Shown one piece after another: positions 6,049 through 54,511 of a DNA stretch of 64,000 bases (position 1 is its first letter; each line of letters begins with the position of its first letter). The notes under the pieces were generated by a model. That model saw nothing but the letters and a program-made list of their open reading frames with translations, was not told the origin of the DNA and searched no databases. The stretch spans positions 186,001-250,000 of the forward strand of contig JASTWF010000336.1 of the NCBI GenBank assembly GCA_030390025.1, given 5' to 3'. Source of the DNA: Squalus acanthias. Taxonomy: Eukaryota. The position numbers and the translations under genes were made by a program.

Positions 6049-7199
6049 GTTCCCGGGCCTGTGCGACTGTCACCCCCTGTGTCTGTCTCTGTGCCTTGTG
6101 TACAGGATCAATCCTCAGTCCCTCTATCCCCCAGCCCTGCCTGTTATATCTGGATAGATGCTCAACCTCTCAGTTTTCGGTCTATTGAGACCGAGTTCAG
6201 GGCATGTGTGGTGAACACAATGTCTCACTATTTCTGTGAATAATAGTATAATCTAAAAGCAGGCTAGGATCAACACAGCCAAACTGTGACACATTCCTGC
6301 CCCTAAATCTCGGCAACAGAGAGTGCGTGGACCGCCTGGCTCAGAGTACGAAGTTTAAGACTGATATTCTCTCTCTGTCTGTCTGTCTCTCTCTCAGGTT
6401 GCTGTCTCTGGGTGTTGAGAATGGAATGCACAGGACACCAGTTGCTCTGTTCTGTTCCTCAGTTTCGGAGGAGAGAGAGACAGAGAGAGGCTAGAGGGGC
6501 GGTGAGCTCATCATTTCTATTTTCATATAAATCAAACCTATTTCTGCCTGCGAACAATATAATAACTTGAAAGCAGATATGGGTGAACACAGCCAGAGCT
6601 GTGATTGGCTCCTGTCCCTGAATCTGGGGATCAGACACTGTGAGGAGCGCCGACCTCAGAGTGTTTAACACTGACTGAGCTGGGAAACTCCAACTAACCC
6701 CGAGAATCGGCAGCACAGGCCGAGCGGAGAGGAAAACCTGTCCCGGGAACTGTAAATCTGGGAGCAGATTGTGCTGTGAATGAGCAGAGTGAGCATTGTG
6801 TCAGCGAGAGTGTGTTAAAGGAGCGGGCGGGTTAGACTAATGTCACTGTGTTTGTGTGTCCGCTCTCATCGCCGGATTTCACAGACCCTCTTGTGTAAAA
6901 TTCAAAGATTTCACTGTCATAGGATCGCCCTGCCCCCCTGCTCAGCCCCGAAGTGCGAATTAAACGTGAAGTTTTATTTGATTTCAAAGTTTAGCCGAAA
7001 AACAGCGAATATTTCCGCGATCGGGTGAGAGTGTGCGATCAGTGCAGCAATGAAACGGCTTCAAATCGAAATTGCTGCCTTGAATTCTGATGAAACTTTC
7101 TCGACAGCAAACATCCCGGTCTTCGAGACAGAAAGAGGCCAGTCTGGGAATCTGGAGTGCCCGAGTTTAATTGGAATCGGAGAGTTAATGAGGAGAGAG

Positions 7200-7272
7200 A
7201 AACACAGAGAGGCTGGAGGGGCCGGGAGCTGACAGCAGGATGTCTCCGCCCCGTCCGCTCGCTGCCTTTAAG
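7200..7272 (+). promoter_or_regulatory. Histone H1 promoter
   Basis: H1 box AAACACA 7200-7206, GC box CCGCCC 7246-7251, TATA-like TTTAAG 7267-7272 upstream of ATG 7351. Confidence 0.65.
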
Positions 7273-7772
7273 TTGCTCTGTGTCGCCGCCTCTCGTTTCA
7301 TTTCTGACCCAGCTCTGACTGTCAGAGAGATTTTCTACAGAGTCGCGGACATGACTGAAACTGCAGCCGCCGAAACGGCTCCTCCTGCCGCCGTCGCTCA
7401 AACCAAGTCTCCCAGCAAGAAGAAGAAGGTGGCTCCCCGCTCCAAGGCAGCCGGTCCCACGTTGGGCGAGCAGATCCTCAAGGTTGTGGCGGGTGGCAGC
7501 GGTCGCAAGGGGATGTCGCTGGCCGCAATAAAGAAGGCTCTGGCTGCCAACGGCGTCGATGTGCAGAAGCACCGGTCCCAGGTCAATTTAAGTATCAAGA
7601 GGAAAGTGTTAAACGGCTCCCTGGAGCAGACCAAGGGCACGGGCGCCGCGGGCTCCTTCAGGCTCGCTAAGAAGGAATCCCAATCGAAAGAGGGAAAGAA
7701 GGTGAGGAAATAACAACAGAAAACGCTGGAAAAACTCAGCAGGCCAGGCAGCATCCGTGGAGAGAGAAAGAG

Positions 7773-8497: not shown

Positions 8498-9384
8498 TTA
8501 TGATCTAAAATTGTTGAACTCGATATTGAGTCCAGAGGGCTGTAGCGTGCCTAAACGAAAGATGAGGTGCTGTTCCTCGAGCTTACGCTGAGCTTCCGTG
8601 GAACAGTGTAATAGGCCGAGGACGGTGAGGTCAGAGTGGGAGTGAAGCGGTGAATTAAAGTGACAGGCCACCGGGAGCTTGGGGTCCCCCTTACGGACTG
8701 AACGGAGGTGTTCCGCAAAGCGGTCACCCAATCTGCGTTTGGTCTCCCCAATGTAGAGGAGTCCACATCGTGAGCAGCGAATACAGTATACTAAATTGCA
8801 GGAATTACAAGTAAATCGCTGTTTCACCTGGAAGGGGTGTTTGGGGCCCTGGACAGTGGGAAGAGGGGAGGTATAAGGGCATGTGTTGCATCTCCTGCGC
8901 GTGCACGGGAAGGTGCCGGGCGAAGGGGAAGGGGTGCTGGGGGTGGTAGAGGAGTGGACTAGGGTGTCGCGGAGGGAGCGGTCCCTACGGAATGCTGAAA
9001 GGGGAGGTGAGGGGAAGATGTGTTTGGTGGTGGGATCACGCTGGAGGTGGCGGAAATGGCGGAGGATGATCCATTGAATTTGGAGGCTGGTGGGGTGAAA
9101 GGTGAGGACAAGAGGAACCCTATCGTGGTTCCGGGAGGGAGGGGCAGGGGTGAGGGCAGATGTGCGGGAGATAGAACGGTCAAGGGCCGTGTCGACCACG
9201 GTAGAGGGGAATCCTCGGTTGAGGAAAAAGGAAGACATGTCGGAAGCACTGGTATGGAAGGTGGCATCATCAGAGCAGATGCGGCGGAGACGGAGAAACT
9301 GGGAGAATGGAATAGAGTCCTTACAGGAGGCGGGGTGGGAGGAAGTGTAGTCCAGGTAGCTGTGGGAGTCGGTGGGCTTGTAGT
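8498..9384 (-). CDS. Penelope ORF C-terminal part (RT thumb/linker + GIY-YIG endonuclease), 5'-truncated
   Basis: YKPTDSHSYL, CxxxxCxxC, LVYCIRCSRCGLLYIGETKRRLGDRFAEH, GLNIEF. Confidence 0.88.
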
Positions 9385-9759
9385 GAAAGAAGGTGAGGAA
9401 ACCGGCAGCCAAGAAATCTGCAGTAAAGAAACCGGCAGCCAAGAAATCTGCAGTAAAGAAACCAGCAGCCAAGAAATCTGCAGTAAAGAAACCAGTAGCC
9501 AAGAAATCTCCAGCCAAGAAAACGATCGCCAAGAAAACGATCACCAAGAAGGCACCAACATCAAAAAAGTCAGCGAAAGTGGCGGCTGGGAAGAAGGTTG
9601 CGGCGAAGAAGCCCAAGAGCCCCAAGAAGACCACAGGCGGAATGGTGAAGGTGGCCAAGAAGGTGGAAAAACCGAAGGCCAAGCCCAAATCAGCAAAGTC
9701 TCAGAAAGCAGCGACCAAAAGAAAGTAAAAAGGACAACTTGTAAACATCTGAACCCAAA

Positions 9760-9800
9760 GGCTCTTTTCAGAGCCACCCAAGTCTTTCCAAAAAGAGCTG
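9760..9800 (+). terminator. Histone 3' stem-loop and histone downstream element
   Basis: GGCTCTTTTCAGAGCC 9760-9775 followed by ACCCA, and AAAGAGCTG 9792-9800. Confidence 0.95.
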
Positions 9801-9943
9801 ATCGCGGAATCAAATGATCCATGTCCCGGGTCCGGGCTCAGACTCCCGATTGAAATCATTTCAAATGAACCCAGGCTCACAGACATTCGCTGTGCCCACT
9901 CCACTCCCAGTGTCTGCAATAAAACAAATGTGAGAAGTCGCAC

Positions 9944-10048
9944 AACACCAGGTTATAGTCCAACAGCTTTATTTGAAATCACAAGCTTTCGGAGCGCTGC
10001 TCCTTCGTCAGGATTTCAAATAAAGCTGTTGCACTACAACCTGGTGTT
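9944..10048. repeat. 37-bp inverted repeat enclosing a hammerhead core (Penelope-derived relic)
   Basis: Arms 9944-9980 and 10012-10048 with 2 mismatches; minus strand CTGACGA-A-GGAGC-A-GCGCTCC-GAAA-GCTT between them. Confidence 0.7.
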
Positions 10049-10105: not shown

Positions 10106-13100
10106 TCAAATCAAAATTTGGAAGTCCGGGGTGACGATGCACTCCAGCCCCCGCGGCGCCCACCGGTCGCGGAAAAACTCAAGCGTGCCGGCGGACACCG
10201 CGTGCTCCATCTCCAGGGCCACCCGGGCGCGAACATGGCCGCGGAAGAGAGGCAGGCAATCGGGCCGAACGACCCCCTCGACCGCCCGCTGCCTGGACCA
10301 ATTAATGGCTTTCTTGGCCAGGCCCAGGAGCAGTCCCACGAGGAGGTCCTCCGACCTACCCGCTCCCCTCCGTACCGGGTGACCGTAGATCAGTAGCGTG
10401 GGGCTGAAGTGCAACCAGAAATTGAGGAGCAGCCCCTTCAAATAATGAAAGAGGGGCTGCAACCTCTCACACACAATATAAATGTGAAAGACGGACTCCT
10501 CCAGGCCGCAGAAATGGCAAGCAGCCTGGGAGTCCGTAAACCTATTTAAAAGCCTATTGCACGGGACTGCTCCGTGCAACACCCTCCAGGCCAAGTCCCC
10601 AATAGAACAAGGGAAGACTCCCGCGTAGAGAGCCCTCCAATGGGGACCTTCGCCTCCGCCGGACGGCAGGATGGTGCGCCAAGGCGTGTCCGGACGGCAG
10701 ACGAAGATGGCAAAGTGGAGAGTGTGCAGGAGCAGCCCGTACAGGAAACGCCTCCGTGCGGATTGAAAGGGCACGGAGGGCATTTCTCCGAGAAGGCTCA
10801 AGTGGTGAGGCGGCGGCTCCCGAGGGAGGATTCGGGGCCGGGCGCCGATAAGGAATTCCGTCCGAACGGGGGTCAGATCGGACGGGATCGCCCCACGTGC
10901 TTGAGCCTCCTCGACACACCTAGTGGAGACGGGGCCCAGTGCCACTTTTAGCGACTCGATGGCTTTGACCGCGAGCCGGACGTTGACCCAGGACATGCGC
11001 CTCGCCAACTCCTCCGGCGCCATCCAGCCCGCTCCTCCGCCATCGAGCAGGTCCCCGACTCTGGTCACCTTACCGGGCACAGCCCTGCCCTCCGCCAGCC
11101 AGCCGAACCCGCGGTCGTGGAGGTGCGGATTCCTGAACAGCGGCTCCCGAAGGACGGCCGCCGCTCCTGACGGGGGAGAACTGCGCTCGGAGGCGACGCT
11201 GTTCCAAACCCATAGCAGTTCCTGGTAGAAGACAGGCAGCTCCCGCAGGCTGGCACGCGTGTCACCCACTCTCACAAACAGGAGCTGCGTGTCGTAATTG
11301 AGGCCGTGCAGCTGGCGGAAGAAATACGTCGCCAGCGCACGCCACCTAGGAGGATTCTCCACGTACAGGTATCTCTGCAGCGTCTGAAGACGGAAAGTCG
11401 CCGCCTGGGTGCGAAGGCACACCAGCGCCTGACTGCCCTCCCTAAGCGGGAGACTCAAAACCGCGGCAGAGACCCAGTGCTTCCTTTTGTCCCAGAAGAA
11501 GTCGACGAGCTTCTTCTGCATCTTGGCGACAAACGCAGGGGGAGGGATCAAAGTGACCAACCGGTACCACAACATGGTGGCCACCAGCTGGTTTATGACC
11601 AGCGCTCGACCCCTGTAGGACAACACTCGGAGCAGTCCTGTCCAGCGCCCTAGGCGAGCGGTGACTTTGGCCTCCAGCTCTTGCCAGTTCGCCGGCCAGG
11701 CGTCCTCGGCCGGGCTGAGGTAGACTCCCAGGTAGAGGAGGTGCGTGGTGCTCCAGGCGAAAGGCCCGAACTCCTCCGGCAGGGAGTCCACCTGCCATGG
11801 GCCCACCAGGAGTCCAGAACATTTCTCCCAGTTGATCTTGGCGGAGGATGCGTCCGAGTAAATCTGCTGGCATTCTCGCATCCTCCGCAAGTCGACGGGA
11901 TCCGTGACCGCGAGGAGCACGTCATCGGCGTAAGCCGAGAGGACCACCTCCACGCCCGGCCCTTGCAGAGCCAGTCCCGTCAACCTCTTCCGCAAGAGGC
12001 GCAGGAAAGGCTCCACGCAAACGGCGTATAACTGACCGCACATGGGGCAGCCCTGACGCACCCCCCTCCCGAAGCGAAGGGGCGCCGTCAAAGACCCGTT
12101 AACTTTAATGAGACACTCCGCGGCGGCGTACAGAAGTCGGATCCGGGCGACGAAATGCGTCCCGAACCCGAAAGCGCGCAGAGTCCCGAAAAGATACTCG
12201 TGATCCACCCTGTCGAACGCCTTCTCCTGATCCAGGGAAAGGAAGGCGACCGACAGACCAGCCCTCTGGGAATGGTGGACCAGGTCCCGGAACAGATGGA
12301 TGTTATCGTGGATACTCCGGCCCAGGACCGTGTAGGACTGGTCGGGGTGGATCATGCGGGCCAGCACGGTGCCAAGGCGAGCAGACATAGCCCTGGCGAA
12401 AATTTTGTAGTCCGTGCTGAGGAGGGAGACCGGGCGCCAGTTCTTAAGTAGGCGGAGATCGCCCTTCTTGGGCAGCAGGACGATGACCGCCCTGCGCCAA
12501 GAGAGGGGCATCTCCCCGGTCGCCAGACTTTCCCCCAGGACCCGCGCGTAGTCGTCCCCCAAGACGTCCCAGAACGCCCTGTGGAACTCCACGGTCAGCC
12601 CGTCCAGCCCCGGGGACTTGCCCCTCGAGAGCTGGCGCAGGGCGCCGGTCAGCTCCGCCAGGCTTAGCGGAGCTTCTAAATTCTCGGCCCCCTCCGGGCC
12701 GACCTTCGGCAGGTCCTCCCACAAAACTCTGCGCGCATCCTCGCTGGACGGATCCGAAGAGAACAGAGCCCCGTAATAGGCCCGGGCCTCCGCGCTGATG
12801 CCCTCCGGATCCGAGACCAGAGATCCGTCGTCGGCCAGCAGCCCCAAGAGCTGCTTACGGACCCCCCGTCTTTTTTCCAGCGAGTAGAAGAAGGGGGAGC
12901 CGCGGTCCAGGTCCCGCAGGAACTGGATCCGCGACCTCACGTACGCGCCTCGGGACCCGACCAGCTGCAGGTCCTTCAGCGCGCCCTTCTTCTCTTCGTA
13001 CACCTTCCGCAGGGCCGGGTCCTCGACGACCTGACCGAGACGGGACTCCAGGTCGAGCACTTCTTTCTCCAATTGGCCGACCCGGGCCTCCCGCCTCTTG

Positions 13101-14005
13101 GTCGACCCCTTCGCGTACTCCTGACAGAAGACGCGGACGTGAGCCTTGCCCACGTCCCACCATAGCCTCAAGGAGGGGAAGCCTCCCCGCTTCCTTCTCC
13201 AGTCGGCCCAGAACCGGCGAAACGAATCCCGGAACCGCGCGTCCTCCAGCAGCAGGTTGTTAAAATGCCAGTACGCGGACCCCCCCCGCGCGCGCAGCGG
13301 AGCGAGCTCCGCCCACACCAGGTGGTGGTCCATGCACGGCAGCGGCCGCATGGAAGCCGCCGGAACGCAGGAGACGTACGCCCGGGAAATGTAAAGGCGG
13401 TCGATTCTGGACCTTCCTCCTCCAGACCTCACGCTCGTGAAGGCGCTGGAGTCGGGATGGAGATTTCGCCAGACGTCCACCAAGTTGAAGGACCCGACCA
13501 GGTCCCGCAACTTCTCCATCGCCGCCGGGCTTCGCGGGGGACCCGACCGGTCCCACGCCTCGAGAGTACAATTGAAATACCCCCCGAGGATGACGCACTC
13601 GCCCACGTCGATGGAGCCCAGAAGAGCGGACACTTCTCCGAAGAAGCGCACTTGCTGCGCACCGGTCCGGGGGGCGTACACGTTCACTAAATGGAGCGGC
13701 ACGCCTCCCAGGCGAACAGTGACCTGGAGCAAGCGGCCCGGCACGTGCTCCTTGACCCTCAAGATCTCCGGCTGAAAATGCGGGGCCAGCAAGACAGCCA
13801 CCCCACAGGAATTGTTGGAGAGGTGACTCATGCTGACCCCTCCTTGCCACTCCAGGAGCCACGTGGCCTCGTCTCCCGGAGCGGTGTGGGTTTCTTGCAG
13901 GAAGCACACCGCATATTTCCCGTCCCGAAGGACCGAGAAGTTATTGAATCTACGGCGCGCCTCCCTGCTGCCGTTGATGTTGAGGCTGGCTATGGTTATC
14001 TTCAT
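10106..14005 (-). CDS. Tx1-B ORF2 (APE endonuclease, RT, C-terminal Zn finger); open, but GDFN is mutated to GYFN
   Basis: SLNING, FLQETH, NWRPVSLL, LDQEKAFDRV, GVRQGCP, YADD, CHFCGLEESVFH. Confidence 0.92.
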   Translation of the reverse strand: MKITIASLNINGSREARRRFNNFSVLRDGKYAVCFLQETHTAPGDEATWLLEWQGGVSMSHLSNNSCGVAVLLAPHFQPEILRVKEHVPGRLLQVTVRLGGVPLHLVNVYAPRTGAQQVRFFGEVSALLGSIDVGECVILGGYFNCTLEAWDRSGPPRSPAAMEKLRDLVGSFNLVDVWRNLHPDSSAFTSVRSGGGRSRIDRLYISRAYVSCVPAASMRPLPCMDHHLVWAELAPLRARGGSAYWHFNNLLLEDARFRDSFRRFWADWRRKRGGFPSLRLWWDVGKAHVRVFCQEYAKGSTKRREARVGQLEKEVLDLESRLGQVVEDPALRKVYEEKKGALKDLQLVGSRGAYVRSRIQFLRDLDRGSPFFYSLEKRRGVRKQLLGLLADDGSLVSDPEGISAEARAYYGALFSSDPSSEDARRVLWEDLPKVGPEGAENLEAPLSLAELTGALRQLSRGKSPGLDGLTVEFHRAFWDVLGDDYARVLGESLATGEMPLSWRRAVIVLLPKKGDLRLLKNWRPVSLLSTDYKIFARAMSARLGTVLARMIHPDQSYTVLGRSIHDNIHLFRDLVHHSQRAGLSVAFLSLDQEKAFDRVDHEYLFGTLRAFGFGTHFVARIRLLYAAAECLIKVNGSLTAPLRFGRGVRQGCPMCGQLYAVCVEPFLRLLRKRLTGLALQGPGVEVVLSAYADDVLLAVTDPVDLRRMRECQQIYSDASSAKINWEKCSGLLVGPWQVDSLPEEFGPFAWSTTHLLYLGVYLSPAEDAWPANWQELEAKVTARLGRWTGLLRVLSYRGRALVINQLVATMLWYRLVTLIPPPAFVAKMQKKLVDFFWDKRKHWVSAAVLSLPLREGSQALVCLRTQAATFRLQTLQRYLYVENPPRWRALATYFFRQLHGLNYDTQLLFVRVGDTRASLRELPVFYQELLWVWNSVASERSSPPSGAAAVLREPLFRNPHLHDRGFGWLAEGRAVPGKVTRVGDLLDGGGAGWMAPEELARRMSWVNVRLAVKAIESLKVALGPVSTRCVEEAQARGAIPSDLTPVRTEFLIGARPRILPREPPPHHLSLLGEMPSVPFQSARRRFLYGLLLHTLHFAIFVCRPDTPWRTILPSGGGEGPHWRALYAGVFPCSIGDLAWRVLHGAVPCNRLLNRFTDSQAACHFCGLEESVFHIYIVCERLQPLFHYLKGLLLNFWLHFSPTLLIYGHPVRRGAGRSEDLLVGLLLGLAKKAINWSRQRAVEGVVRPDCLPLFRGHVRARVALEMEHAVSAGTLEFFRDRWAPRGLECIVTPDFQILI

Positions 14006-14030
14006 CTCAGAAGCATAGTGCAACCTCTAC

Positions 14031-16193
14031 CTAACGGAGGGGAGGGAGCGCGGTCACTGACGACCGCCACTCCCTCAGCAGCCCAGTGTGGAAACTCTTG
14101 AGCTGACGCAGCTCGAGCCGGCCAACGTCCTTGTCCGCGCCCATGATTTTAACGGCGGCGCGGACGGACACGACGAGCAGCGCCAGCTCCGACCACTTGT
14201 CGAGGGCCAGCCGGATCTTCTTGTGACGACCCTGGCTCATGGCCATAAAATCCCGGAGTTCCCCTACGGGGATGAGGGGAGAGTCGGTGAAGGGCACGAG
14301 GGCGTCCATCACCTCGCTGCCGATGGACTCCAAATCGTCCTCGATGCCCACCACCGAGTCCCCGTCCTCCTCCGGGAGGTCGTCACCGGCGGCCGACCCG
14401 TCCGTCGCACGGGGTGCAGCGAACGGCTCGGCCGCACCGGCCGGGGCCGCCTCCGTCACGATCCCACCCCCAGGATCGGTGGCAGAGGAGTCCACCCTGG
14501 GCTCCTTCAGGGGCGCCGGGCCGGGAGGCGGCGGCGGCGGTTCGGGGCCCCCCCCCGCCTCAGGCGCCGGAGCGACCGGAGAAACCGGGGAGAAAATAAT
14601 CCCAAATTCCTCCAGCACGTCCGGCGCCAACATCAGAGACGGAGTCAGGAGGCTTTCCGTCTCCCCGCCACCAACCTCCGACCCAGCGGGCCGGGGACTG
14701 CTACACTCCTCCACCAGGTCGAGCAGTCCCTGGGAGATATCTGGGATGTAAAAGGCGGGCTAGGCCTCAGCCTCTTTGGCCTCGCCTGCCCCAGTCCCCA
14801 GGACGCCCGACCCGGCGAGGAGCAACGGTTCAGGTTTTTTACTATTGATAACCGCGGGTTGTTCCGCGCCCCCCCCCACGGGCAGGGTCTCTTCCCCATC
14901 CCCGGGAGGCACAGGTCGGACAGACTCGGCTGTCTCACCCTCCCGAGGGACAGACGACCCCTGCCGATCGCGCGCGATGATGACGGTGGTGGGGTGGGGC
15001 GCAGCACCCGCGGCGGGCGACTCCCCCCCTTCTGCGGAGGGACCTTCCTCCTCGCAGTCCTCCTCCTCCTGGGGGCGGAGCTTTCTTTTTAACATATTGG
15101 GGCCCGGAGAGGGGGAGGCCTCCATGTCTGCTGGGGCCTCCCTCTCTGCCCCCTTCCGACGACTGGGTTTCTTGGGCCCCTCGGGCCCGAGCCCGGCCAC
15201 AGGTCTTGATTCAGCTGCCTTGGCAGTTGCGGTCACGGTCACGGGCCCGGGCACGAGGACCCCCCCAGTCTCAGGCGTCCCGATCAACTCCGCGATGTAC
15301 TCGGGCGTGAGTTCGGTCAACTCGGATGTTTCCTCCACGAGGGGATCCGCCCTTAGGTGTTTATTTTTTCTACGCGCCTTCCTTCCCCCCGGACGCTCTC
15401 CCTCCCCCCCGCCGGAGGCCGTGTTGGTGTTGGCCTCCGATTTCGACCGCGCATCCGTCGCCATCGACGCGCGGACAGTATCAGAGGGAGGGGGGGCGGC
15501 GGCGCCAGCCCTGGCCGCGCCAGGTGTCGTGGCGGCCTTGGAGGCGGGGCAGTTTTTGCGGACGTGCCCCACCTCCTTACAGGCGTAGCACCGCACGCCG
15601 TCCGAGGTCCAGAAGACGCGGTGGGCGGTCCCCCCGTGGAGCACCGTGAACGCGCCGTCCGCGTCCTCCTCCCGCGCCAGCCGGACGAAAAGCTGGCGCC
15701 GGAAGGAGAAGACGTGCCGAAGGCTGGCTTCCCGGAAGCCGAGCGGGATGGGTGTGATCCCCGACCTCACCTCCCCCAGTTGACGTAGGTGGGGGAGGAG
15801 GAGCTCACCCGGAACAAAGGGCGGGACGTTGGAAACCACAATCCTTTGTGCGGTGGCCTCAAGGGGATCCACCGGCAGGAAGGTCCCGCCCACGGTGAGC
15901 CCCTTCTCGATGGCCAGGGACACCGCCCGCTCCGACCCCAGGAAGAACACAGCCTTGCCGTACATTTTAGAGGCGGCGACGATGGCTGAAGGGCCGACAA
16001 CCCCAGCCATGGCTTTTACGCACGCCTCTATTGTCATATTGGGGTGAGTGTAGCTCTTGACCCCATTCTTCCTCGTAAGGAGGGTAAAAGGTGACGGGGT
16101 AACAGGAGGACTCGTGGCTGCGGCCGTGGCCGCGGCTGCCACGCTTGCGTATGTCCTCGCTGCCCCCGCCACCGGCGAAGATGTGGTCGCCAT
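14031..16193 (-). pseudogene. Tx1-B ORF1 with one in-frame TAG at 14760-14762
   Basis: SNVPPF, FSFRRQ, CYACKEVGHVRKNC; frame continues past the stop and aligns with subfamily A ORF1. Confidence 0.85.
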
Positions 16194-16753
16194 GATGGGT
16201 TGGTCTTTAAGGGCTACACTCACCCCAAGTCACAGGCCTGAAGGTGTTAATGGCCTCGGTTTTTTGTTTCTGTTTTCCCCTGAGCAGAGGGAGCTCTTAA
16301 ATTGAAGGCACACCTCTCCCTTTATATGAATTAATTAGGAGAGGGGCCTTCTGCCCTCTGCTCAATGGGTACTTAATAAAAAGTAAATTGAGGTGCCTCT
16401 TAGAGAGAGAGGCAGAGAGAGACAAGAGACAAAGAGAGAGAGAGAGGGGGTGGGAAGGAGGGAAGCCGCAAGGGCAGGGTCGCCACTCAGGATGGTGGGT
16501 GGGTGGGTGTTGGCAGGGGGGTGCACTCTCCGATGTAATAAAAGTCTTTGGTGGTGGTCTTCTGGTGGGGGGAGAAGATGTCTTCACCTGGGATAGCTGG
16601 AGATGCCCAGGCTCAGTCCTGCACCAGGTCTTAACGATGCCCAATAAGATTAAATTAATTGGGGACTTCACCTAGGCAGCTCCAGCTGTCCCAGGCCAGG
16701 CAATGGGAAAGGGGTGTTTAATATGGTGTGTGCGGCCTAGCTTTTACAGAAGC

Positions 16754-16786
16754 CACACACACACACACACACACACCCCGAGTGCG
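16754..16786 (+). repeat. (CA)11 + CCCCGAGTGCG: putative target site and left TSD of the array
   Basis: Same motif recurs at 17642, 25454, 33438, 40958 and 48557. Confidence 0.85.
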
Positions 16787-17354
16787 AGACCCAGAGGAGA
16801 GTGGCCTGGGCGGGAGGCCCAGCACGGAGAACCCCAGGCGGGGGGCCCAGGGCGGGGCGGCTGGTCGGCAGAGGTGGAGTCGGGAGATGCGGTTGCTTCA
16901 CCCCGGGTGCTCGTGGGGAATGCCGGTGCGGAGGGTCCGGTGCAGAAGGCCCAAGGTGGAAGACCCAGAGGAGAGTGGCCTGGGCGGGAGGCCCAGCACG
17001 GAGAACCCCAGGCGGGGGGCCCAGGGCGGGGCGGCTGGTCGGCAGAGGTGGAGTCGGGAGATGCGGTTGCTTCACCCCGGGTGCTCGTGGGGAATGCCGG
17101 TGCGGAGGGTCCGGTGCAGAAGGCCCAAGGTGGAAGACCCAGAGGAGAGTGGCCTGGGCGGGAGGCCCAGCACGGAGAACCCCAGGCGGGGGGCCCAGGG
17201 CGGGGCGGCTGGTCGGCAGAGGTGGAGTCGGGAGATGCGGTTGATTCACCCCGGCTGCTCGCGGGGAATGCCGGTGCGGAGGGTCCGGTGCAGAAGGCCC
17301 AAGGTGGAAGACCCGGAGGAGAGTGGCCTGGGCGGGAGGCCCAGCACGGAGAAC
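16787..17354 (+). repeat. 174-bp GC-rich tandem repeat, about 3.3 copies
   Basis: Repeat starts at 16787, 16961, 17135, 17309. Confidence 0.95.
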
Positions 17355-17641
17355 AATTGAGTGGATGGTCGGGTGGGTGGTGCCAGTGGGACTGGCGCGG
17401 AACAGGTTTCTTGGGTTATTGGAGTGGATGTTATATGTGGCATTTAGTTGGATTGTGATGGTGCTATGTGTTTGTACACTGTGGTGTTGAAATGGGTTGT
17501 TTTATGTGGAGTTAAGTGAGATGTATTATTTTAATATTAAAAAAAAGTGTGGTATTGTTTGGGGGTATTTGTACTGTATTTTGATGGATGAATGTAATGG
17601 TTTTACTATGTAATTTGTATTATTGGTTTGAATAAAAGATT
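16787..17641 (+). mobile_element. Array unit 0: tail-only copy (174-bp repeats + 3' module)
   Basis: Starts mid-repeat, ends AATAAAAGATT, flanked by CACACCCCGAGTGCG at 16772-16786 and 17642-17656. Confidence 0.85.
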
Positions 17642-18710
17642 CACACCCCGAGTGCGGCCCCAGGCCCCATTATTCGGACACCCAGGCGAGGACAGACGGA
17701 GGCAGAGGCTGAGGCTGCGAGGGACTCAGCTCAACACGGTGCTGCGTGAACGGGTGAGCGCCGTTTGCTGAGAAGAGGAGGGGAAAGGAGAGGTCTCTTT
17801 TCTCTGTGCCTAGAAGGAGAAGGAGCCACGAAGGACAGAGTGGAGACCTTTTCCACCTCCACCACGCCTGCAGCTACAGCTACAACCACAACTGCTGCTG
17901 AGGTGAGAGAGGAGAGGAGAGGAGAGAGAGGAGACCAGCAACAGCAACAGAGGGAAGCCTTTCCATCACTGCCTCCCCAACTGGTCTCCATTACGAGAGA
18001 GGGAGAGAGGGGAGAACAAGACCAACATCTGCTTGGAAGGAGGGAGAGCGAGCCTTCGAGAAGGAAAACAACATCGAGAGGTGGGTGTTAAAAAGGGCAC
18101 TCTCCAAAAGACTTTGTATTTGAGGTGGGGGGAGGAAAGAAGAAGGAGAAGACCGGGATAGCAAGGGGTGTGTGTGAGTGTGTGTGGCTCTTGCTAACAA
18201 CTCGGCCACACACACCATCAACAAGCACCCCTTGCCTATTGCTTCACATTTTAGAACATTGTTAAGACCTGGTTGTAGACTGAGCCTGGGCATCTCCAGC
18301 TTTATTTTTTCCCAGGTGAAGACATCTTCTCCCCCCACCAGAAGAACATCAACAAAGACTTTATTTATCATCGAAGAGTGCCCCCCCCCCCAGGAGGCAC
18401 CCACCCACCCACTATCCTGAGTGGCGAATAGGCCCGTGCGGCCTTCCCCCTTTCCTCCTTCCCACCCCCTCTCTCTCTCTCTCTCTCTCTCTGCCTCTCT
18501 CTAATGAGGCACCTCAAACCTTATTTATTACCCAATTGAGCAGAGGGGAGAAGGCCACTCCCAATTCCAATCATAAAAGGGAGAGGTGTGCCTTCTTTTT
18601 CTCAAAACAACCCCCTCTGCTCGGGGGAAAAGACAAAAAAAACCCAAGGCCACTTAAACATCACCCGGCCTGTGACTTGGGGTGGGTGTAGCCCTTTATA
18701 CCACCTCAGT

Positions 18711-20800
18711 ATGGCGAGCACATCTTCGCCGGCGGCGGGGCAAGCAAGGTCGTACGCGGGTGTGGCAGCCACGGCCACAGCTGGTCCCGCTGCTTCTGCT
18801 GCCCCGTCGCCTTTCAGGCTATTGACAAAAAAGCTGGGGGTGAAGAGCTACACTCACCCCAACATGACCATAGAGGCTTGCGTCAAAGCCATGGCTGGGG
18901 TAGTCGGCCCCTCAGCCATCGTTGCGGCCTCTAAAATGTACGGTAAGGCTGTGTTCTTCCTGCGGTCGGAGCGGGCGGTGTCCCTGGCCGTCACCGAGGG
19001 GCTCACCGTGGGCGGGACCTTCCTGCCGGTGGATCCGCTCGAGGCCACCGAGCAGCGACTCATACTATCGAATGTCCCGCCATTTGTTCCGGTTGAGCTC
19101 CTCCTCCCCCACCTACGTCAACTGGGGGAGGTGAGGTCGGGGATTAATCCGATCCCGCTCGGCTGCAGGGAGGCCAGCCTCCGGCACGTCTTCTCCTTCC
19201 GGCGCCAGCTGTTTATCCAGCTGGCGCGGGAGGAAGACACGGAAGGCGCATTTAGCATAACACACGAGGGGACCGCCTACCGCGTCTTCTGGACGTCGGA
19301 CGGTGTGCGGTGCCATGCCTGTAAGGAGGTGGGGCACATAAGAAAGAACTGCCCCGCCTCCAAGGCCGCCAAAGCATCTGAGGCGGCCAAGGCTGGCGCC
19401 GCCGCCGCTCCTCCCCCTGTTTCTGTCCGCACGTCTGCGACACCCGATGCGCGGTCGACGCCGGAGGTCAACGCCGTCGCGGCGTCCGGCGAAGGGGAGG
19501 GGGAGCGTCCGACTGGAAGGAAGGCGCGGAGGAAAAGCAAACACCTTCAGGCGGGTCCCCTTCACATATATGATGACTTACCCGAGCTTACGCCCCTACA
19601 CCTTGCGCGGGTGGCGGCGGAGTTCGAGAATGCGAGGGACCTTGTGCCCGGGCCTGCGGCCGCATCCGCCAAGGCGGCAAAATCGAGACCTGCGGCCGTG
19701 ACCGGGCCCGGGACCCCCGAGCAGACCGATCGACAGGGGGGAGCGGAGGTGGAGGCCTCGGTATGCATGGAGGTCTCCCAACCTTCGTGTCCCTCCTCTT
19801 CGAAAAGGAGGCGCGACATCCTGGATGAGGGGGAGGACCGTGAGGAACGGGGTCCCCCCTCGCAAGGGGAGTCGTTGCCCGCCGCGGGTGCTGCGCCCCC
19901 CCCCCACCGACACCATCACCGAGATCCGGCAGGGGCCGCCTGTCCCCCGGGAGGGCATGACAGATGAGTCTGTCCAGCCTGTGCCTCCCGGGGATGGGGG
20001 AGAGGCCCTGCTCATGGGGGGGGGCCGCGGAACTACCCGCGGTGGGGAGTTACGCTGATCCGTTGTTTCTCGCCAGGTCGGGCATCCTGGGGACCGGGGC
20101 GGGCGAGGCCGATGAGGCAGAGCCCGCCGTGTACGGTCAGGACCACTCCCAGGCACTGCTCGACCTGGTTGAGCAATATAACCAGGGTACCTGGTCCGCT
20201 GGGTCGGAGGATGGTGGCGGTGAAGGGGAAGGCCCCCTGACTCCGTCTGCGACGCTGGCGCCGGGGTTGTTGAGGGAACTGGCACTAATGTGCTCCCCGG
20301 TTTCCCTGTGCACCCCGGTGCCGGGGGCGGAGGGGGGCCCCGAGCCGCCGCCGCTTCCTGACCCGGCGCCTCTGGAGGAGCCCAGGGAGGACTCCTCTGC
20401 TGCCGATCCTGGGGGTGGGATCGGGGCAGAGGTAGGGCTGGCCGATGGCGACCCCCCGGAGGAGGACGGGGACCCGGCGGAGGACACTGAGGATGATATG
20501 GAATCCGTCGCCAGTGAGGCGGCGGATGCCCTCGTGCCCTCCTCCGGGTCCCCCCTCATCCCCGTTGTGGAACTCCGGGACTTTGTGGCCATGGGCCAGG
20601 GTCGCCAGGATATAATCCGGCTGGCCATCGATAAATGGTCGGATCTGGCGCTGCTCGTTTGCTCCGTCCGCGCCGCAGTCAAAACCATGGGCGCGGACGG
20701 GGGCGTGGGCCTGGCCGAGCGGCGTCGGATCCAGAATTTCCTCGCTGGGCTTGGAAGGGAGTGGCGGTCGACTAGCGGCCGCGCTCCCTCCTCCCGTTAG
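18711..20800 (+). pseudogene. Unit 1 ORF1, frameshifted at homopolymer runs
   Basis: C10 near 19900 and G9 near 20020 versus C9/G8 in the intact units 3 and 5; could be sequencing error. Confidence 0.75.
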
Positions 20801-20831
20801 AGTAAGGTAGAGGTTGCACTATGCTCTTGTC

Positions 20832-23800
20832 ATGAAGATAACCATAGCCAGCCTCAACATCAACGGCAGCAGAGAGGCACGCCGTAGATTTAATAACTTC
20901 TCGGTCCTTCGGGAAGGGAGGCATGCGGTGTGCTTCCTGCAGGAAACTCACACCGTTCCGGGAGACGAGGCCACGTGGCTCCTGGAGTGGCGAGGAGGGG
21001 TCAGCATGAGTCACCTCTCCAACGTTTCCGGTGGGGTGGCTATCTTGCTGGCCCCGCATTTTCAGCCGGAGATCTTGGGGGTCAAGGAGCATGTGCCGGG
21101 CCGCTTGCTCCAGGTCACTGTTCGTCTGGGGGGCGTGCCGCTCCATTTAGTGAACGTGTACGCCCCCCAGCCCGGTGCGCAGCAAGTGCGCTTCTTCGAT
21201 GAAGTGTCCGCTCTTCTGGGCACCGTCGACGTCGGCGAGTGCATCATCCTCGGGGGGGATTTTAATTGTACCCTCGAGGCGAGGGACCGTTCGGGCCCTT
21301 CGCGAAGCCTGACGGCGACGGTGAAGTTGAGGGACCTGGTCGGGTCCTTCGACTTGGTGGACGTCTGGCGAAATCTCCATCCCGACTCCAGCGCCTTCAC
21401 TTGGGTGGGGTCTGGAGGAGGAAGGTCCAGAATCGACCGCCTTTATATTTCCCGGGCGTACGTCTCCTGCGTTCCGGCGGCTTCCATGCGGCCGGTGCCG
21501 TGCACGGACCACCACCTGGTGTGGGCGGAGCTCGCTCCGTTGCAGGCGCCGGGGGGGTCCGCGTACTGGCATTTTAACAACCTGCTGCTGGAGGACGTGC
21601 GGTTCCGGGATTCGTTTCGCCGGTTCTGGGCCGACTGGAGAAGGAAGCAGGGGGGCTTCCCCTCCTTGAGGCTATGGTGGGACGTGGGCAAGGCTCACGT
21701 CCGTCTCTTCTGTCAGGAGTACGCGAAGGGGTCGACCAAGAGGCGGGAGGCCCGGGTCGGGCGATTGGAGAAAGAAGTGCTCGACCTGGAGTCCCGTCTC
21801 GGTCAAGTCGTCGAAGACCCGGCCCTGCGGAAGGTGTACGAAGAGAAGAAGGGCGCGCTGAAGGACCTGCAGCTGGTCGGGTCCCGAGGCGCGTACGTGA
21901 GGTCGCGAATCCAGTTCCTGCGGGACCTGGACCGCGGCTCCCCCTTCTTCTACTCGCTGGAAAAAAGACGAGGGGTCCGTAAGCAGCTCTTGGGGCTGCT
22001 GGCCGACGACGGATCTCTGGTCTCGGATCCGGAGGGGATCAGCGCGGGGACCCGGGCCTATTACGGGGCTCTGTTCTCTCCGGATCCGTCCAGCGAGGAT
22101 GCGCGCAGAGTTTTGTGGGAGGACCTGCCGAAGGTCGGCCCGGAGGGCGCCGAAGAATTGGACGCTCCGCTAAGTTTGGCGGAGCTGACCGGCGCCCTGC
22201 GCCAGCTCTCGAGGGGAAAGTCCCCGGGGCTGGACGGGCTGACCGTGGAGTTCCACAGGGCGTTCTGGGACGTCTTGGGGGGCGACTACGCGCGGGTCCT
22301 GGGGGAAAGTCTGGCGACCGGGGAGATGCCCCTCTCTTGGCGCAGGGCGGTTATCGTCCTGCTGCCCAAGAGGGGTGATCTCCGCCTTTTAAAAAACTGG
22401 CGCCCGGTCTCCCTCCTCAGCACGGACTATAAAATTTTTGCCAGGGCCATGTCTGCCCGCCTCGGCACCGTGCTGGCCCACATGATCCACCCCGACCAGT
22501 CCTACACGGTCCCGGGCCGGACAATCCACGACAACATCCATCTGGTCCGGGACCTGGTCCACCTTTCCCAGAGGACTGGTCTGTCGGTCGCCTTCCTTTC
22601 CCTGGATCAGGAGAAGGCGTTCGACAGGGTGGATCACGAGTATCTCTTCGGGACTCTGCGCGCATTCGGGTTCGGGACGCATTTCGTCGCCCGGATCCGA
22701 CTTCTGTACGCCGCCGCGGAGTGTCTGATTAAAGTTAACGGGTCTTTGACGGCGCCCCTTCGCTTCGGGAGGGGGGTGCGTCAGGGATGCCCCATGTCCG
22801 GTCAGTTATATGCCGTTTGCGTGGAGCCTTTCCTGCGCCTCTTGCGGAAGAGGTTGACGGGACTGGCTCTGCAAGGGCCGGGCATGGAGGTCGTCCTCTC
22901 GGCTTACGCCGATGACGTGCTCCTCATGGTCACGGATCCCGTCGACCTGCGGAGGATGCGAGAATGCCAGCAGATTTACTCGGACGCATCCTCCGCCAGG
23001 ATCAACTGGGAGAAATGTTCTGGACTCCTGGTGGGCCAGTGGCAGGTGGACTCCCTGCCGGAGGAGTTCAGGCCCTTCGCCTGGAGCACAACACACCTCC
23101 TCTACTTGGGAGTCTACCTCAGCCCTGCCGAGGACACCTGGCCGGCGAACTGGCAAGAGCTGGAGGCCAAGGTCACCGCTCGCCTAGGACGCTGGACGGG
23201 GTTGCTCCGAGTGTTGTCCTACAGGGGTCGAGCGCTGGTCATAAACCAGCTGGTGGCCGCCATGTTGTGGTACCGGTTGGTCACTTTGATCCCTCCCCCT
23301 GCGTTTGTCGCCAAGATACAGAAGATGCTCATCGACTTCTTCTGGGACAAAAGGAAGCACTGGGTCTCTGCCGCGGTTCTGTGTCTCCCGCTTAGGGAGG
23401 GCGGTCAGGCGCTGGTGTGCCTTCGCACCCAGGCGGCGACTTTCCGTCTTCAGACGCTGCAGAGGTACCTTTACGTCGAGAATCCTCCCAGATGGTGTGC
23501 GCTGGCGACGTATTTCTTCCGCCAGATGCACGGCCTCAACTACGACACGCAGCTCCTGTTTGTGGAATTGGGCCGCACGCGAGCCTACCTGTGGGAGCTG
23601 CCTGTCTTTTACCAGGAACTGCTATGGGTCTGGAACCAGGTCGCCTCCAGGCGGAGTTCTCCCCCGTCAGGAGTGGCGGCTCTCCTTCGGGAGCCGCTGT
23701 TCAGGAATCCGCACCTCCACGTCCGACGGATCGGCTGGCTGGCGGAGGGCAGGGCTGTGCCAGGCAAGGTGACCAGAGTCAGGGACCTGCTCGATGGCGG

Positions 23801-24731
23801 AGGAGCGGGCTGGATGGCGCCAGAGGAGTTGGCGCGGCGCCTCTCCTGGGCAGACGTCTGGCGCGCGGCCAAAGCCATCGAGTTGCTGAAAGTGGCACTG
23901 GGCCCGGACTCCACTAGGTGTATCGAGGAGGCTCAAGTACGTGGGGCGATCCCGTCCGAACTGACCTCCGTTCGGACGGAATTCCTCATCGGCGCACGGC
24001 CCCGAAACCCCTCTCGGGAACCGGCGCCTCACAACTTGAGCCGTCTCGGGGAAATGCCCTCTGTGCCCTTCAGTTCTGCACGGAGGGGTTTCCTGTACGG
24101 GCTGCTCCTGCACACTTTCCACTTTGTCATCTTCGCCTGCCGTCCGGACACGCCTTGGCGTGCCATCTTGCCGTCCGGCGGAGGCGAAGGTCCCCAATGG
24201 AGGGCTCTCTATGCGGGAGTACTCCCCTTTTCTATTGGGGACATGGCCTGGAGGGTGTTGCACGGAGCAGTCCCGTGCAATCGGTTTTTAAGTAGGTTCA
24301 CGGACTCCCAGGCCGCCTGTCTTTTTTGCGGCCTCGAGGAGTCCGTGTTCCACGTTTATGTGGAATGTGAGAGGTTGCAGCCCCTCTTTGAATATTTGAA
24401 GGGGCTGCTCCTCGCTTTTTGGTTGCACTTCAGTCCCACGCTCCTGATCTACGGTCACCCGGTGCGGAGGGGAGAGAGCAAGTCGGAGGACCTCCTCGTA
24501 GGACTGCTCCTGGGCCTGGCCAAAGTGGCCATTAACAGGTCCAGGCAGCGGGCGGTCGAGGGGGTCGTTCGGCCCAATTGCCTGCCTCTCTTCCGCGGCT
24601 ATGTTCGCGCCCGGGTGGCCCTGGAGATGGAGCATGCGGTGTCCGCCGGCACACTTGAAGCCTTCCGAGACCGGTGGGCGCCGCAGGGACTGGAGTGCAT
24701 CGTTTCCCCGGGAAATGTTATTTTAATTTAA
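20832..24731 (+). CDS. Unit 1 ORF2 (APE-RT-Zn finger), intact
   Basis: GDFN, TDHH, YADD, CLFCGLEESVFHVYVEC. Confidence 0.95.
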   Translation: MKITIASLNINGSREARRRFNNFSVLREGRHAVCFLQETHTVPGDEATWLLEWRGGVSMSHLSNVSGGVAILLAPHFQPEILGVKEHVPGRLLQVTVRLGGVPLHLVNVYAPQPGAQQVRFFDEVSALLGTVDVGECIILGGDFNCTLEARDRSGPSRSLTATVKLRDLVGSFDLVDVWRNLHPDSSAFTWVGSGGGRSRIDRLYISRAYVSCVPAASMRPVPCTDHHLVWAELAPLQAPGGSAYWHFNNLLLEDVRFRDSFRRFWADWRRKQGGFPSLRLWWDVGKAHVRLFCQEYAKGSTKRREARVGRLEKEVLDLESRLGQVVEDPALRKVYEEKKGALKDLQLVGSRGAYVRSRIQFLRDLDRGSPFFYSLEKRRGVRKQLLGLLADDGSLVSDPEGISAGTRAYYGALFSPDPSSEDARRVLWEDLPKVGPEGAEELDAPLSLAELTGALRQLSRGKSPGLDGLTVEFHRAFWDVLGGDYARVLGESLATGEMPLSWRRAVIVLLPKRGDLRLLKNWRPVSLLSTDYKIFARAMSARLGTVLAHMIHPDQSYTVPGRTIHDNIHLVRDLVHLSQRTGLSVAFLSLDQEKAFDRVDHEYLFGTLRAFGFGTHFVARIRLLYAAAECLIKVNGSLTAPLRFGRGVRQGCPMSGQLYAVCVEPFLRLLRKRLTGLALQGPGMEVVLSAYADDVLLMVTDPVDLRRMRECQQIYSDASSARINWEKCSGLLVGQWQVDSLPEEFRPFAWSTTHLLYLGVYLSPAEDTWPANWQELEAKVTARLGRWTGLLRVLSYRGRALVINQLVAAMLWYRLVTLIPPPAFVAKIQKMLIDFFWDKRKHWVSAAVLCLPLREGGQALVCLRTQAATFRLQTLQRYLYVENPPRWCALATYFFRQMHGLNYDTQLLFVELGRTRAYLWELPVFYQELLWVWNQVASRRSSPPSGVAALLREPLFRNPHLHVRRIGWLAEGRAVPGKVTRVRDLLDGGGAGWMAPEELARRLSWADVWRAAKAIELLKVALGPDSTRCIEEAQVRGAIPSELTSVRTEFLIGARPRNPSREPAPHNLSRLGEMPSVPFSSARRGFLYGLLLHTFHFVIFACRPDTPWRAILPSGGGEGPQWRALYAGVLPFSIGDMAWRVLHGAVPCNRFLSRFTDSQAACLFCGLEESVFHVYVECERLQPLFEYLKGLLLAFWLHFSPTLLIYGHPVRRGESKSEDLLVGLLLGLAKVAINRSRQRAVEGVVRPNCLPLFRGYVRARVALEMEHAVSAGTLEAFRDRWAPQGLECIVSPGNVILI

Positions 24732-24753
24732 TGCACTCCAAGTTGTCCGCTTC

Positions 24754-25165
24754 GCAGAAGGCCCAAGGTGGAAGACCCGGAGGAGAGTGGCCTGGGCGGG
24801 AGGCCCAGCACGGAGAACCCCAGGCGGGGGGCCCAGGGCGGGGCGGCTGGTCGGCAGAGGTGGAGTCGGGAGATGCGGTTGCTTCACCCCGGGTGCTCGT
24901 GGGGAATGCCGGTGCGGAGGGTCCGGTGCAGAAGGCCCAAGGTGGAAGACCCAGAGGAGAGTGGCCTGGGCGGGAGGCCCAGCACGGAGAACCCCAGGCG
25001 GGGGGCCCAGGGCGGGGCGGCTGGTCGGCAGAGGTGGAGTCGGGAGATGCGGTTGCTTCACCCCGGTGCTCGTGGGGAATGCCGGTGCGGAGGGTCCGGT
25101 GCAGAAGGCCCAAGGTGGAAGACCCAGAGGAGAGTGGCCTGGGCGGGAGGCCCAGCACGGAGAAC
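24754..25165 (+). repeat. 174-bp tandem repeat, about 2.4 copies
   Basis: Same unit as 16787-17354. Confidence 0.9.
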
Positions 25166-26519
25166 AATTGAGTGGATGGTCGGGTGGGCTGGTGCCAGTG
25201 GGACTGGCGCGGAACAGGTTTCTTGGGTTATTGGAGTGGATGTTATATGTGGCATTTAGTTGGATTGTGATGGTGCTATGTGTTTGTACACTGTGGTGTT
25301 GAAATGGGTTGTTTTATGTGGAGTTAAGTGAGATGTATTATTTTAATATAAAAAAAAAGTGTGGTATTGTTTGGGGGTATTTGTACTGTATTTTGATGGA
25401 TGAATGTAATGGTTTTACTATGTAATTTGTATTATTGGTTTGAATAAAAGATTCACACCCCGAGTGCGGCCCCAGGCCCCATTATTCGGACACCCAGGCG
25501 AGGACAGACGGAGGCAGAGGCTGAGGCTGCGAGGGACTCAGCTCAACACGGTGCTGCGTGAACGGGTGAGCGCCGTTTGCTGAGAAGAGGAGGGGAAAGG
25601 AGAGGTCTCTTTTCTCTGTGCCTAGAAGGAGAAGGAGCCACGAAGGACAGAGTGGAGACCTTTTCCACCTCCACCACGCCTGCAGCTACAGCTACAACCA
25701 CAACTGCTGCTGAGGTGAGAGAGGAGAGGAGAGGAGAGAGAGGAGACCAGCAACAGCAACAGAGGGAAGCCTTTCCATCACTGCCTCCCCAACTGGTCTC
25801 CATTACGAGAGAGGGAGAGAGGGGAGAACAAGACCAACATCTGCTTGGAAGGAGGGAGAGCGAGCCTTCGAGAAGGAAAACAACATCGAGAGGTGGGTGT
25901 TAAAAAGGGCACTCTCCAAAAGACTTTGTATTTGAGGTGGGGGGAGGAAAGAAGAAGGAGAAGACCGGGATAGCAAGGGGTGTGTGTGAGTGTGTGTGGC
26001 TCTTGCTAACAACTTGGCCACACACACCATCAACAAGCACCCCTTGCCTATTGCTTCACATTTTAGAACATTGTTAAGACCTGGTTGTAGACTGAGCCTG
26101 GGCATCTCCAGCTTTATTTTTTCCCAGGTGAAGACATCTTCTCCCCCCACCAGAAGAACATCAACAAAGACTTTATTTATCATCGAAGAGTGCCCCCCCC
26201 CCCAGGAGGCACCCACCCACCCACTATCCTGAGTGGCGAATAGGCCCATGCGGCCTTCCCCCTTTCCTCCTTCCCACCCCCTCTCTCTCTCTCTCTCTCT
26301 CTGCCTCTCTCTAATGAGGCACCTCAAACCTTATTTATTACCCAATTGAGCAGAGGGGAGAAGGCCACTCCCAATTCCAATCATAAAAGGGAGAGGTGTG
26401 CCTTCTTTTTCTCAAAACAACCCCCTCTGCTCGGGGGAAAAGACAAAAAAACCCAAGGCCACTTAAACATCACCCGGCCTGTGACTTGGGGTGGGTGTAG
26501 CCCTTTATACCACCTCAGT

Positions 26520-32542: not shown

Positions 32543-32564
32543 TGCACTCCAAGTTGTCCGCTTC

Positions 32565-33151
32565 GCAGAAGGCCCAAGGTGGAAGACCCGGAGGAGAGTG
32601 GCCTGGGCGGGAGGCCCAGCACGGAGAACCCCAGGCGGGGGGCCCAGGGCGGGGCGGCTGGTCGGCAGAGGTGGAGTCGGGAGATGCGGTTGCTTCACCC
32701 CGGGTGCTCGTGGGGAATGCCGGTGCGGAGGGTCCGGTGCAGAAGGCCCAAGGTGGAAGACCCAGAGGAGAGTGGCCTGGGCGGGAGGCCCAGCACGGAG
32801 AACCCCAGGCGGGGGGCCCAGGGCGGGGCGGCTGGTCGGCAGAGGTGGAGTCGGGAGATGCGGTTGCTTCACCCCGGGTGCTCGTGGGGAATGCCGGTGC
32901 GGAGGGTCCGGTGCAGAAGGCCCAAGGTGGAAGACCCAGAGGAGAGTGGCCTGGGCGGGAGGCCCAGCACGGAGAACCCCAGGCGGGGGGCCCAGGGCGG
33001 GGCGGCTGGTCGGCAGAGGTGGAGTCGGGAGATGCGGTTGATTCACCCCGGCTGCTCGCGGGGAATGCCGGTGCGGAGGGTCCGGTGCAGAAGGCCCAAG
33101 GTCGAAGACCCGGAGGAGAGTGGCCTGGGCGGGAGGCCCAGCACGGAGAAC
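32565..33151 (+). repeat. 174-bp tandem repeat, about 3.4 copies
   Basis: Same unit. Confidence 0.9.
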
Positions 33152-40083: not shown

Positions 40084-40670
40084 GCAGAAGGCCCAAGGTG
40101 GAAGACCCGGAGGAGAGTGGCCTGGGCGGGAGGCCCAGCACGGAGAACCCCAGGCGGGGGGCCCAGGGCGGGGCGGCTGGTCGGCAGAGGTGGAGTCGGG
40201 AGATGCGGTTGCTTCACCCCGGGTGCTCGTGGGGAATGCCGGTGCGGAGGGTCCGGTGCAGAAGGCCCAAGGTGGAAGACCCAGAGGAGAGTGGCCTGGG
40301 CGGGAGGCCCAGCACGGAGAACCCCAGGCGGGGGGCCCAGGGCGGGGCGGCTGGTCGGCAGAGGTGGAGTCGGGAGATGCGGTTGCTTCACCCCGGGTGC
40401 TCGTGGGGAATGCCGGTGCGGAGGGTCCGGTGCAGAAGGCCCAAGGTGGAAGACCCAGAGGAGAGTGGCCTGGGCGGGAGGCCCAGCACGGAGAACCCCA
40501 GGCGGGGGGCCCAGGGCGGGGCGGCTGGTCGGCAGAGGTGGAGTCGGGAGATGCGGTTGATTCACCCCGGCTGCTCGCGGAGAATGCCGGTGCGGAGGGT
40601 CCGGTGCAGAAGGCCCAAGGTGGAAGACCCGGAGGAGAGTGGCCTGGGCGGGAGGCCCAGCACGGAGAAC
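40084..40670 (+). repeat. 174-bp tandem repeat, about 3.4 copies
   Basis: Same unit. Confidence 0.9.
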
Positions 40671-48031: not shown

Positions 48032-48270
48032 GCAGAAGGCTCAAGGTGGAAGACCCGGAGGAGAGTGGCCTGGGTGGGAGGCCCAGCACGGAGAACCCCA
48101 GGCGGGGGGCCCAGGGCGGGGCGGCTGGTCGGCAGAGGTGGAGTCAGGAGATGCGGTTGCTTCACCCCGGGTGCTCGTGGGGAATGCCGGTGCGGAGGGT
48201 CCGGTGCAGAAGGCCCAAGGTGGAAGACCCAGAGGAGAGTGGCCTGGGCGGGAGGCCCAGCACGGAGAAC
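48032..48270 (+). repeat. 174-bp tandem repeat, about 1.4 copies
   Basis: Same unit. Confidence 0.9.
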
Positions 48271-54507: not shown

Positions 54508-54511
54508 GAAA

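Follow-up and report, generated by a model that had tools for sequence, protein, structure and literature searches.

The 3' end of a young LINE in the genome of Squalus acanthias carries two dense blocks of A-to-G changes on its RNA strand, and we consider it probable, at roughly 80%, that one RNA hyper-edited by ADAR was reverse-transcribed and founded the LINE subfamily that bears them (the G form). Comparison of genomic copies shows that the G subfamily derives from an unedited pair of a LINE and a non-coding element, that it differs from this pair by the two blocks and by almost nothing else inside them, and that it then spread to at least 137 places. That the changes run from A to G, and that they arose on the RNA strand in a single burst, is well supported. 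A-to-I editing is usually treated as a transient change of RNA; here an apparent edit has entered the germ line, and an apparently edited RNA has founded an autonomous LINE subfamily of 137 copies or more. Because the unedited precursor, older apparently edited forms, and an outgroup all occur in one genome, inheritance of RNA edits via LINEs becomes datable and testable. The case also suggests that repeat subfamily markers may arise in one burst, so that ages based on divergence would be inflated.

The LINE array and the origin of its 3' UTR

The window, by which we mean the whole 64-kb stretch of DNA analysed, contains an array that is a run of 7.8-kb non-LTR retrotransposon units. ORF2 combines an APE endonuclease, a reverse transcriptase, and a C-terminal zinc domain, with human L1 ORF2p as its nearest solved relative; an ORF1 is also present and LTRs are absent. 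By its sequence, the array is a young L1/Tx1-type LINE, the Tx1 likeness coming from a target-sequence preference: LINE-5'-UTR-like or target-like sequence lies 3' of the G-form tail at 33 of 39 loci, and a target motif also separates consecutive array units. Since ORF2 lies on the + strand, this is the RNA strand. The main features are the following.

2051 to 2584, - strand: the "free copy", a 5'-truncated A-form member of the non-autonomous family
10106 to 16772, - strand: sister LINE, 86% identical, which holds the array in its 5' end in the opposite orientation
16774 to 16786, + strand: target motif, repeated after each array unit (17644, 25456, 33442, 48557)
16787 to 17354, + strand: 174-bp repeats, unedited copies of element positions 146-316 plus 3 nt
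17351 to 17644, + strand: 3' tail of the LINE in the G form, derived from the non-autonomous element's 3' end and shortened by deletions
17644 to 25456, + strand: full LINE unit of 7.8 kb (5' UTR, ORF1 region, ORF2, captured 3' UTR)
20811 to 24731, + strand: ORF2, an open frame of 1306 aa (APE endonuclease, reverse transcriptase, zf-RVT)
34220 to 36592, + strand: open ORF1 frame in a later array unit, with one CCHC zinc knuckle
25162-25456, 33148-33440, 40667-40960, and 48267-48559, + strand: further G-form array tails

The G form is seen in all five array tails of the window. In the LINE 5' UTR at window positions 17642-17760, the young subfamily has four more A>G changes in its first 141 nt relative to older relatives; these are accompanied by other changes and are too few for a third edited block.

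The non-coding, non-autonomous element is 1.4-2 kb long, and at least 719 tails in the genome match a degenerate pattern of it. The free copy, flanked by 16-bp target-site duplications (2035-2050 and 2585-2600), carries an 8-nt duplication that hides further A>G sites in its alignment with the array; 143 element copies lacking the duplication are colinear with the array. It was rejected as the parent of the array tail, being a member of a related subfamily instead. A search for a closer A-form relative with a marker of the young family gave two chance matches only; one of these led to the subfamily that lacks the duplication.

The LINE and a downstream non-coding element once formed an unedited tandem pair, and the genomic copies show that this pair survives at several loci. 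At one of these, L068, the end of the LINE is directly followed by a full A-form element, and junctions of this kind were found in 11 of 40 scored candidates. L068 is 98% identical to the array in the end of ORF2, with a balanced spectrum, 96-98% in the 174-bp part, and 85% identical in the tail, where there are 20 A>G, 0 G>A, and 1 T>C. Based on this likeness of the ORF2 end, the 174-bp part, and the tail, the array 3' UTR appears to have been captured from the element. Nine older G-form LINEs (9/9 matches) retain more of the element, including an A>G-shifted 5' end. These alignments show that today's 3' UTR was shaped by several deletions and repeat expansions and that the A>G blocks are older; copies keeping sequence that was later deleted carry two more A>G changes there, so the A>G change preceded those deletions.

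The 174-bp repeat, which the earlier note had proposed to search for an unedited source, hides none: it matches the 5' part of the element itself at 96-99% identity and, with no A>G excess relative to that part, is ruled out as an edited sequence. Its unit joins exactly at a GT donor-like site (window position 17245 and every 174-bp junction; element position 316 in L068), where it meets the final bases that follow the terminal AG of the element, resembling a spliced transcript of tandem elements. The junction looks as if a transcript had been spliced before retrotransposition; an unspliced precursor was not found in the fetched loci or in the genome.

Other copies show further arrangements of element and target. 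The target motif occurs twice, head to head and about 300 bp apart, at L161:5030-5300 and in the upstream flanks of L114-L125, where the two motifs surround a CCAAT-containing, promoter-like stretch and elements can occupy both sites. Locus L131 (G000:C4:43927800-43937700) is a local array of at least eight short G-form tails with differing deletions and repeated target sequence between them. By its motifs, the 5' end of the element resembles a captured host first exon, near zinc-finger-like genes.

Spectrum, direction, and timing of the A-to-G changes

The earlier note had counted about 18 A-to-G differences, about four other substitutions, and no G-to-A between the array tail and the free copy. 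A local alignment to position 17460 bears this out: 17 substitutions are A>G, none is G>A, and 6 are of other types (17:0 for A>G against G>A, P=1.5e-5; 17 A>G against 1 T>C, P=1.4e-4). Against the colinear A-form L068, positions 17351-17461 show 19 A>G changes, four other substitutions, and a 1-nt deletion; one of the 19, at 17397, is ambiguous, as G is found there in most of the family and in the outgroup. The changed sites are distributed as follows.

17361 to 17455, + strand: main A>G tract, 18 firm sites and one ambiguous site (17397)
17561 to 17562, + strand: two more A>G sites, common to old and young G-form copies
24733 to 24757, + strand: remnant of the second, putatively edited block (5' end of the captured element), directly behind the ORF2 stop

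Remnants of the second block also occur at 32544, 40063, and 48011, and the block is present at full length in nine older copies elsewhere. Three later changes lie on top of the main tract: C>T at 17378, T>C at 17398, and C>A at 17435. The first falls in a CpG made by an A>G change and is polymorphic (12 C and 18 T among 30 copies), which fits decay of the CpG so created.

For the full spectrum, the majority of the nine older G-form LINEs was compared with the majority of the precursors, 11 for the 5' part and ORF2 and 6 for the tail. The captured part has 37 A>G changes at 167 A (12 at 50 A in the 5' segment and 25 at 117 A in the tail); a symmetric T>C excess, which the earlier note had named as an outcome that would refute its view, is absent, with 0 T>C at 180 T. 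The adjacent ORF2, as a control, has 11 changes in 1203 nt, with 1 A>G at 184 A, and tests of the A>G spectrum gave P=2.5e-12 and 1.7e-13. The changes form dense clusters, in that 30 of 58 A are changed in the two blocks, 0 of 25 in the GC-rich stretch between the blocks, and 6 of 77 in the distal tail. There is no A>C change, and both A>T changes lie inside a poly(A) run.

A general tendency of the LINE, or of individual insertions, toward A>G is ruled out. The LINE body, over about 7.1-7.2 kb, is symmetric (A>G 59, T>C 54, C>T 42, G>A 41), as is the inverted sister LINE in the window (A>G/T>C/C>T/G>A of 118/99/110/115), and the private changes of 144 segments outside the G form (non-G1 segments) comprise 36 A>G and 52 T>C, with no excess of the former. 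Sequencing or assembly artefact is likewise ruled out: all 40 scored matches of the G-form 3' module in the genome are 99-100% identical, across many contigs. The module is not confined to this array; an exact 27-nt G-form pattern has 137 occurrences.

The direction of change was read from an old element copy in L161, 78-85% identical, in an alignment blind to A versus G. This outgroup has A at 29 of the 37 sites, G at 4, T at 1, and gaps at 3, so A is ancestral; about 3-4 of the 37 sites are doubtful, the outgroup having G. The L161 copy is not itself hyper-edited, its spectrum being symmetric (A>G 37, T>C 35, G>A 50, C>T 37). An internal tail paralogue was discarded as an outgroup, its alignment being out of register. 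The family majority is A-rich like the outgroup, and the A form is also seen in the host-like sequences and LINE 5' UTRs related to the 5' block. A tree of 85 of the 107 tails, with 22 young, near-identical G copies omitted, was built by a quick method with all A/G columns removed and midpoint rooting; it places the 23 G rows on one branch (SH-aLRT 94), nested beside the A-form loci L093, L100, and L143 (SH-aLRT 93).

These results uphold the earlier note's view of A as the ancestral state. They bear equally on the alternative that it had named, in which G is ancestral and the free family was hit by APOBEC-type G-to-A hypermutation. Such editing of retroelements is well documented, chiefly for LTR elements (PMC4866542); unless the outgroup itself stems from that event, we find it hardly credible here: outgroup, family majority, and the host-like and LINE 5'-UTR relatives all have A, G1 is nested among A forms in the tree, and the G1 UTR is a deletion derivative of the intact A-form pair.

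The change also appears to have been made in one step. A census of nine sites in the 5' part of the tract, in which the pattern was left free at all A/G sites and matches were counted by eye (copies with other mutations escape it), found 40 all-G copies, 59 all-A copies, and one copy with a single G among the 100 of 284 matches listed; none of these 100 had G at 2-8 of the nine sites. Apart from the A>G set, only one T>G and a 1-nt deletion separate the oldest G copies from L068 over the first 130 nt of the tail; the T>C and C>A in the tract arose later than the A>G set.

ADAR and other possible sources of the burst

The preferred reading would proceed as follows. A read-through transcript of the LINE-element pair would fold back on an inverted relative, and in the paired parts about half the adenosines would be deaminated by ADAR. 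During target-primed insertion in the germ line, the LINE reverse transcriptase would then read inosine as G, and the edited insertion would become the founder of a subfamily and multiply. ADAR-type editing, fixed by reverse transcription and then amplified, was the proposal of the earlier note; spectrum and polarity support it, while ADAR itself we infer. Exons with the ADAR/ADAT-family deaminase domain PF02137 are found on six contigs of the host genome.

The 5'-neighbour bias of the changed adenosines is modest. In the two blocks, 11 of 15 A were changed after A, 6 of 9 after U, 7 of 16 after C, and 6 of 18 after G, or 17 of 24 after U/A versus 13 of 34 after C/G (P=0.018, or 0.016 without the ambiguous site, A runs not being independent); 5'-G depletion alone is not significant (P=0.09). 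The direction matches the ADAR1/2 neighbour preference described in PMC3113232. The earlier note had cautioned that several changed As follow G, a context not favoured by ADAR: a third of such As are indeed changed, but those after U or A are changed at a higher rate, which answers the caution in part. No preference for a 3' G was seen (5 of 14 with a 3' G versus 25 of 44 others).

As to a double-stranded substrate, the tail folds no better than shuffled sequences (z -1.0 and -1.3), edited adenosines are no more often paired than unedited ones, and pairing of the two blocks with each other has no support, 36 of 100 shuffles being as good. No duplex partner was found in the precursor RNA, at 13 tested loci, in the LINE body, or in a nearby inverted copy. 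Since the A between the blocks are untouched and few in the distal tail are changed, a full-length duplex does not fit. Possible arms do exist: at L161 two copies of the element lie inverted to each other with about 260 bp between them, and at 16 of 39 G-form loci the insertion is antisense to the LINE-5'-UTR-like sequence that receives it. The 5' block stops close to the limit of the likeness between element and LINE 5' UTR, a position that would fit an antisense LINE-5'-UTR-like partner as the duplex arm. Sense-antisense duplexes are seldom edited according to PMC13445718, and an inverted neighbour in the same transcript would thus be the likelier partner. For human L1, PMC5224506 describes RNA left unedited by overexpressed ADAR1, and restriction of L1 by ADAR1 in culture without editing.

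Another adenosine deaminase, such as a germ-line ADAD/ADAT-type enzyme, could have acted on single-stranded or loosely folded RNA. This would suit the lack of a long duplex, the 33% of A changed after G, and the deaminase domains on six contigs; it seems very unlikely to us, as the order of neighbours matches ADAR. To our knowledge, no such hyper-editing by a non-ADAR deaminase is known in vertebrates.

An A-specific error burst of the LINE reverse transcriptase, placing C opposite template A during one insertion, would dispense with ADAR altogether; skewed dNTP pools or modified adenosines are possible causes. Such a burst would also be one-step and strand-specific, would need no duplex, none having been found, and would agree with the weak neighbour bias. 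We nevertheless judge it improbable. ORF2 from the same copying event is clean at all but one A, two separate blocks lie on either side of an untouched stretch, and the private mutations of the non-G1 segments have no A>G excess. Moreover, A>C is missing, unlike in the adenine-random reverse transcriptases of diversity-generating retroelements, which convert adenine to any base as the template repeat is copied to the variable repeat.

Among known systems, the closest to an ADAR-edited LINE founder are A-to-G hyper-edited retroviruses, namely the avian RAV-1 (Felder 1994) and avian leukosis virus (Hajjar and Linial 1995) and, in culture, HTLV-2/STLV-3 (all as cited in PMC8586724). There, as in the G-form LINE, clustered sense-strand A>G changes are ascribed to ADAR and fixed by reverse transcription; the LINE differs in being a non-LTR retrotransposon with a germ-line change, intact ORF2 frames, and a dispersed subfamily of which the edited copy would be the founder. 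APOBEC-edited LTR retrotransposons resemble it in that host deaminase marks are fixed in genomic copies and detected by strand bias and comparison with an unedited source, whereas the change is sense-strand G>A and the substrate is DNA; in that screen of LTR elements, mismatch types other than G>A were very rare (PMC4866542). ADAR editing of inverted repeats such as Alu shares the dense A>G, the repeat-derived non-coding RNA, and the depletion of upstream G, but is RNA-only, with an identifiable inverted neighbour and 3'-G enrichment, neither of which was seen for the G-form LINE (PMC4365171). Tx1-clade LINEs and partners such as SINEU have a comparable target preference, a partner with the same 3' end, and tandem insertions separated by target duplication; unlike in those pairs, the shared tail here apparently moved from partner to LINE, in edited form (PMC4494074). 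A literature search that took in few subscription papers found no report of an ADAR-edited founder of a LINE subfamily.

Recurrence, the poly(A) hexamer, and other sequences in the window

Other lineages of the element carry different A>G subsets in the same stretch. Across the 144 non-G1 segments, shared A>G variants occur at 8 of 14 A in positions 1129-1172 versus 17 of 334 elsewhere; over the whole element, shared A>G and T>C stand at 25:16 (P=0.08). The recurrent sets are not nested in that of G1, and those represented in the tree fall outside the G1 branch. At five of the eight recurrent sites, however, G1 is changed too, which could be due to gene conversion.

A(A/T)TAAA occurs at four internal places in the A form, whereas the G-form UTR retains the terminal hexamer only; three A>G changes at 17424-17427 destroyed the last internal one, AATAAA. 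The internal hexamer is altered in 30 of 96 non-G1 copies, three of them to ATTAAA, and of the fetched copies only one ends nearby, lacking a poly(A) tail. It is conceivable, though we doubt it, that ADAR has been a recurrent germ-line mutagen here and that the founder succeeded as edits erased this last internal putative poly(A) hexamer. Loss of the hexamer from the captured 3' UTR would then let transcripts reach the 3' end needed for insertion, and, if this is true, an RNA edit would have turned into an inherited and selected novelty of an autonomous LINE.

The same observations could be taken to favour stepwise, ordinary mutations in master copies, with G kept by selection for G-U pairs that keep hairpins, for loss of internal poly(A) signals, or for G-richness. 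Local hairpins tolerate A>G, the internal AATAAA has also changed outside G1, and other lineages bear partial sets of the same sites. This history is nonetheless most improbable in our estimation: about half of all A are changed, against 11 of 1203 nt in the neighbouring ORF2, and purifying selection cannot raise the rate; intermediates are absent from the 5' part of the tract among the matches listed, and the partial forms L126, L141, and L159 sit on other branches of the tree. A single ADAR-edited RNA remains the preferred account of the G form.

The last LINE unit contains a 9.3-kb insertion (window 52880-62158) bounded by 1630-bp direct repeats that are 99.9% identical, start with TG, and end with CA. 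None of its four long frames (620, 386, 480, and 370 aa) matches Pfam at E 0.001; we take it for a very young LTR-type element whose coding content resembles no Pfam family.

To the left of the LINE nest are a linker-histone H1 domain and a lysine/alanine-rich repeat frame (window 7192-7713 and 9011-9817), the latter with a composition typical of an H1 tail. A 105-bp imperfect palindrome (window 9944-10048) lies beside the end of the sister LINE, and a frame at 8498-9700 has a weak GIY-YIG match; together, we presume, these may be a Penelope-like remnant.
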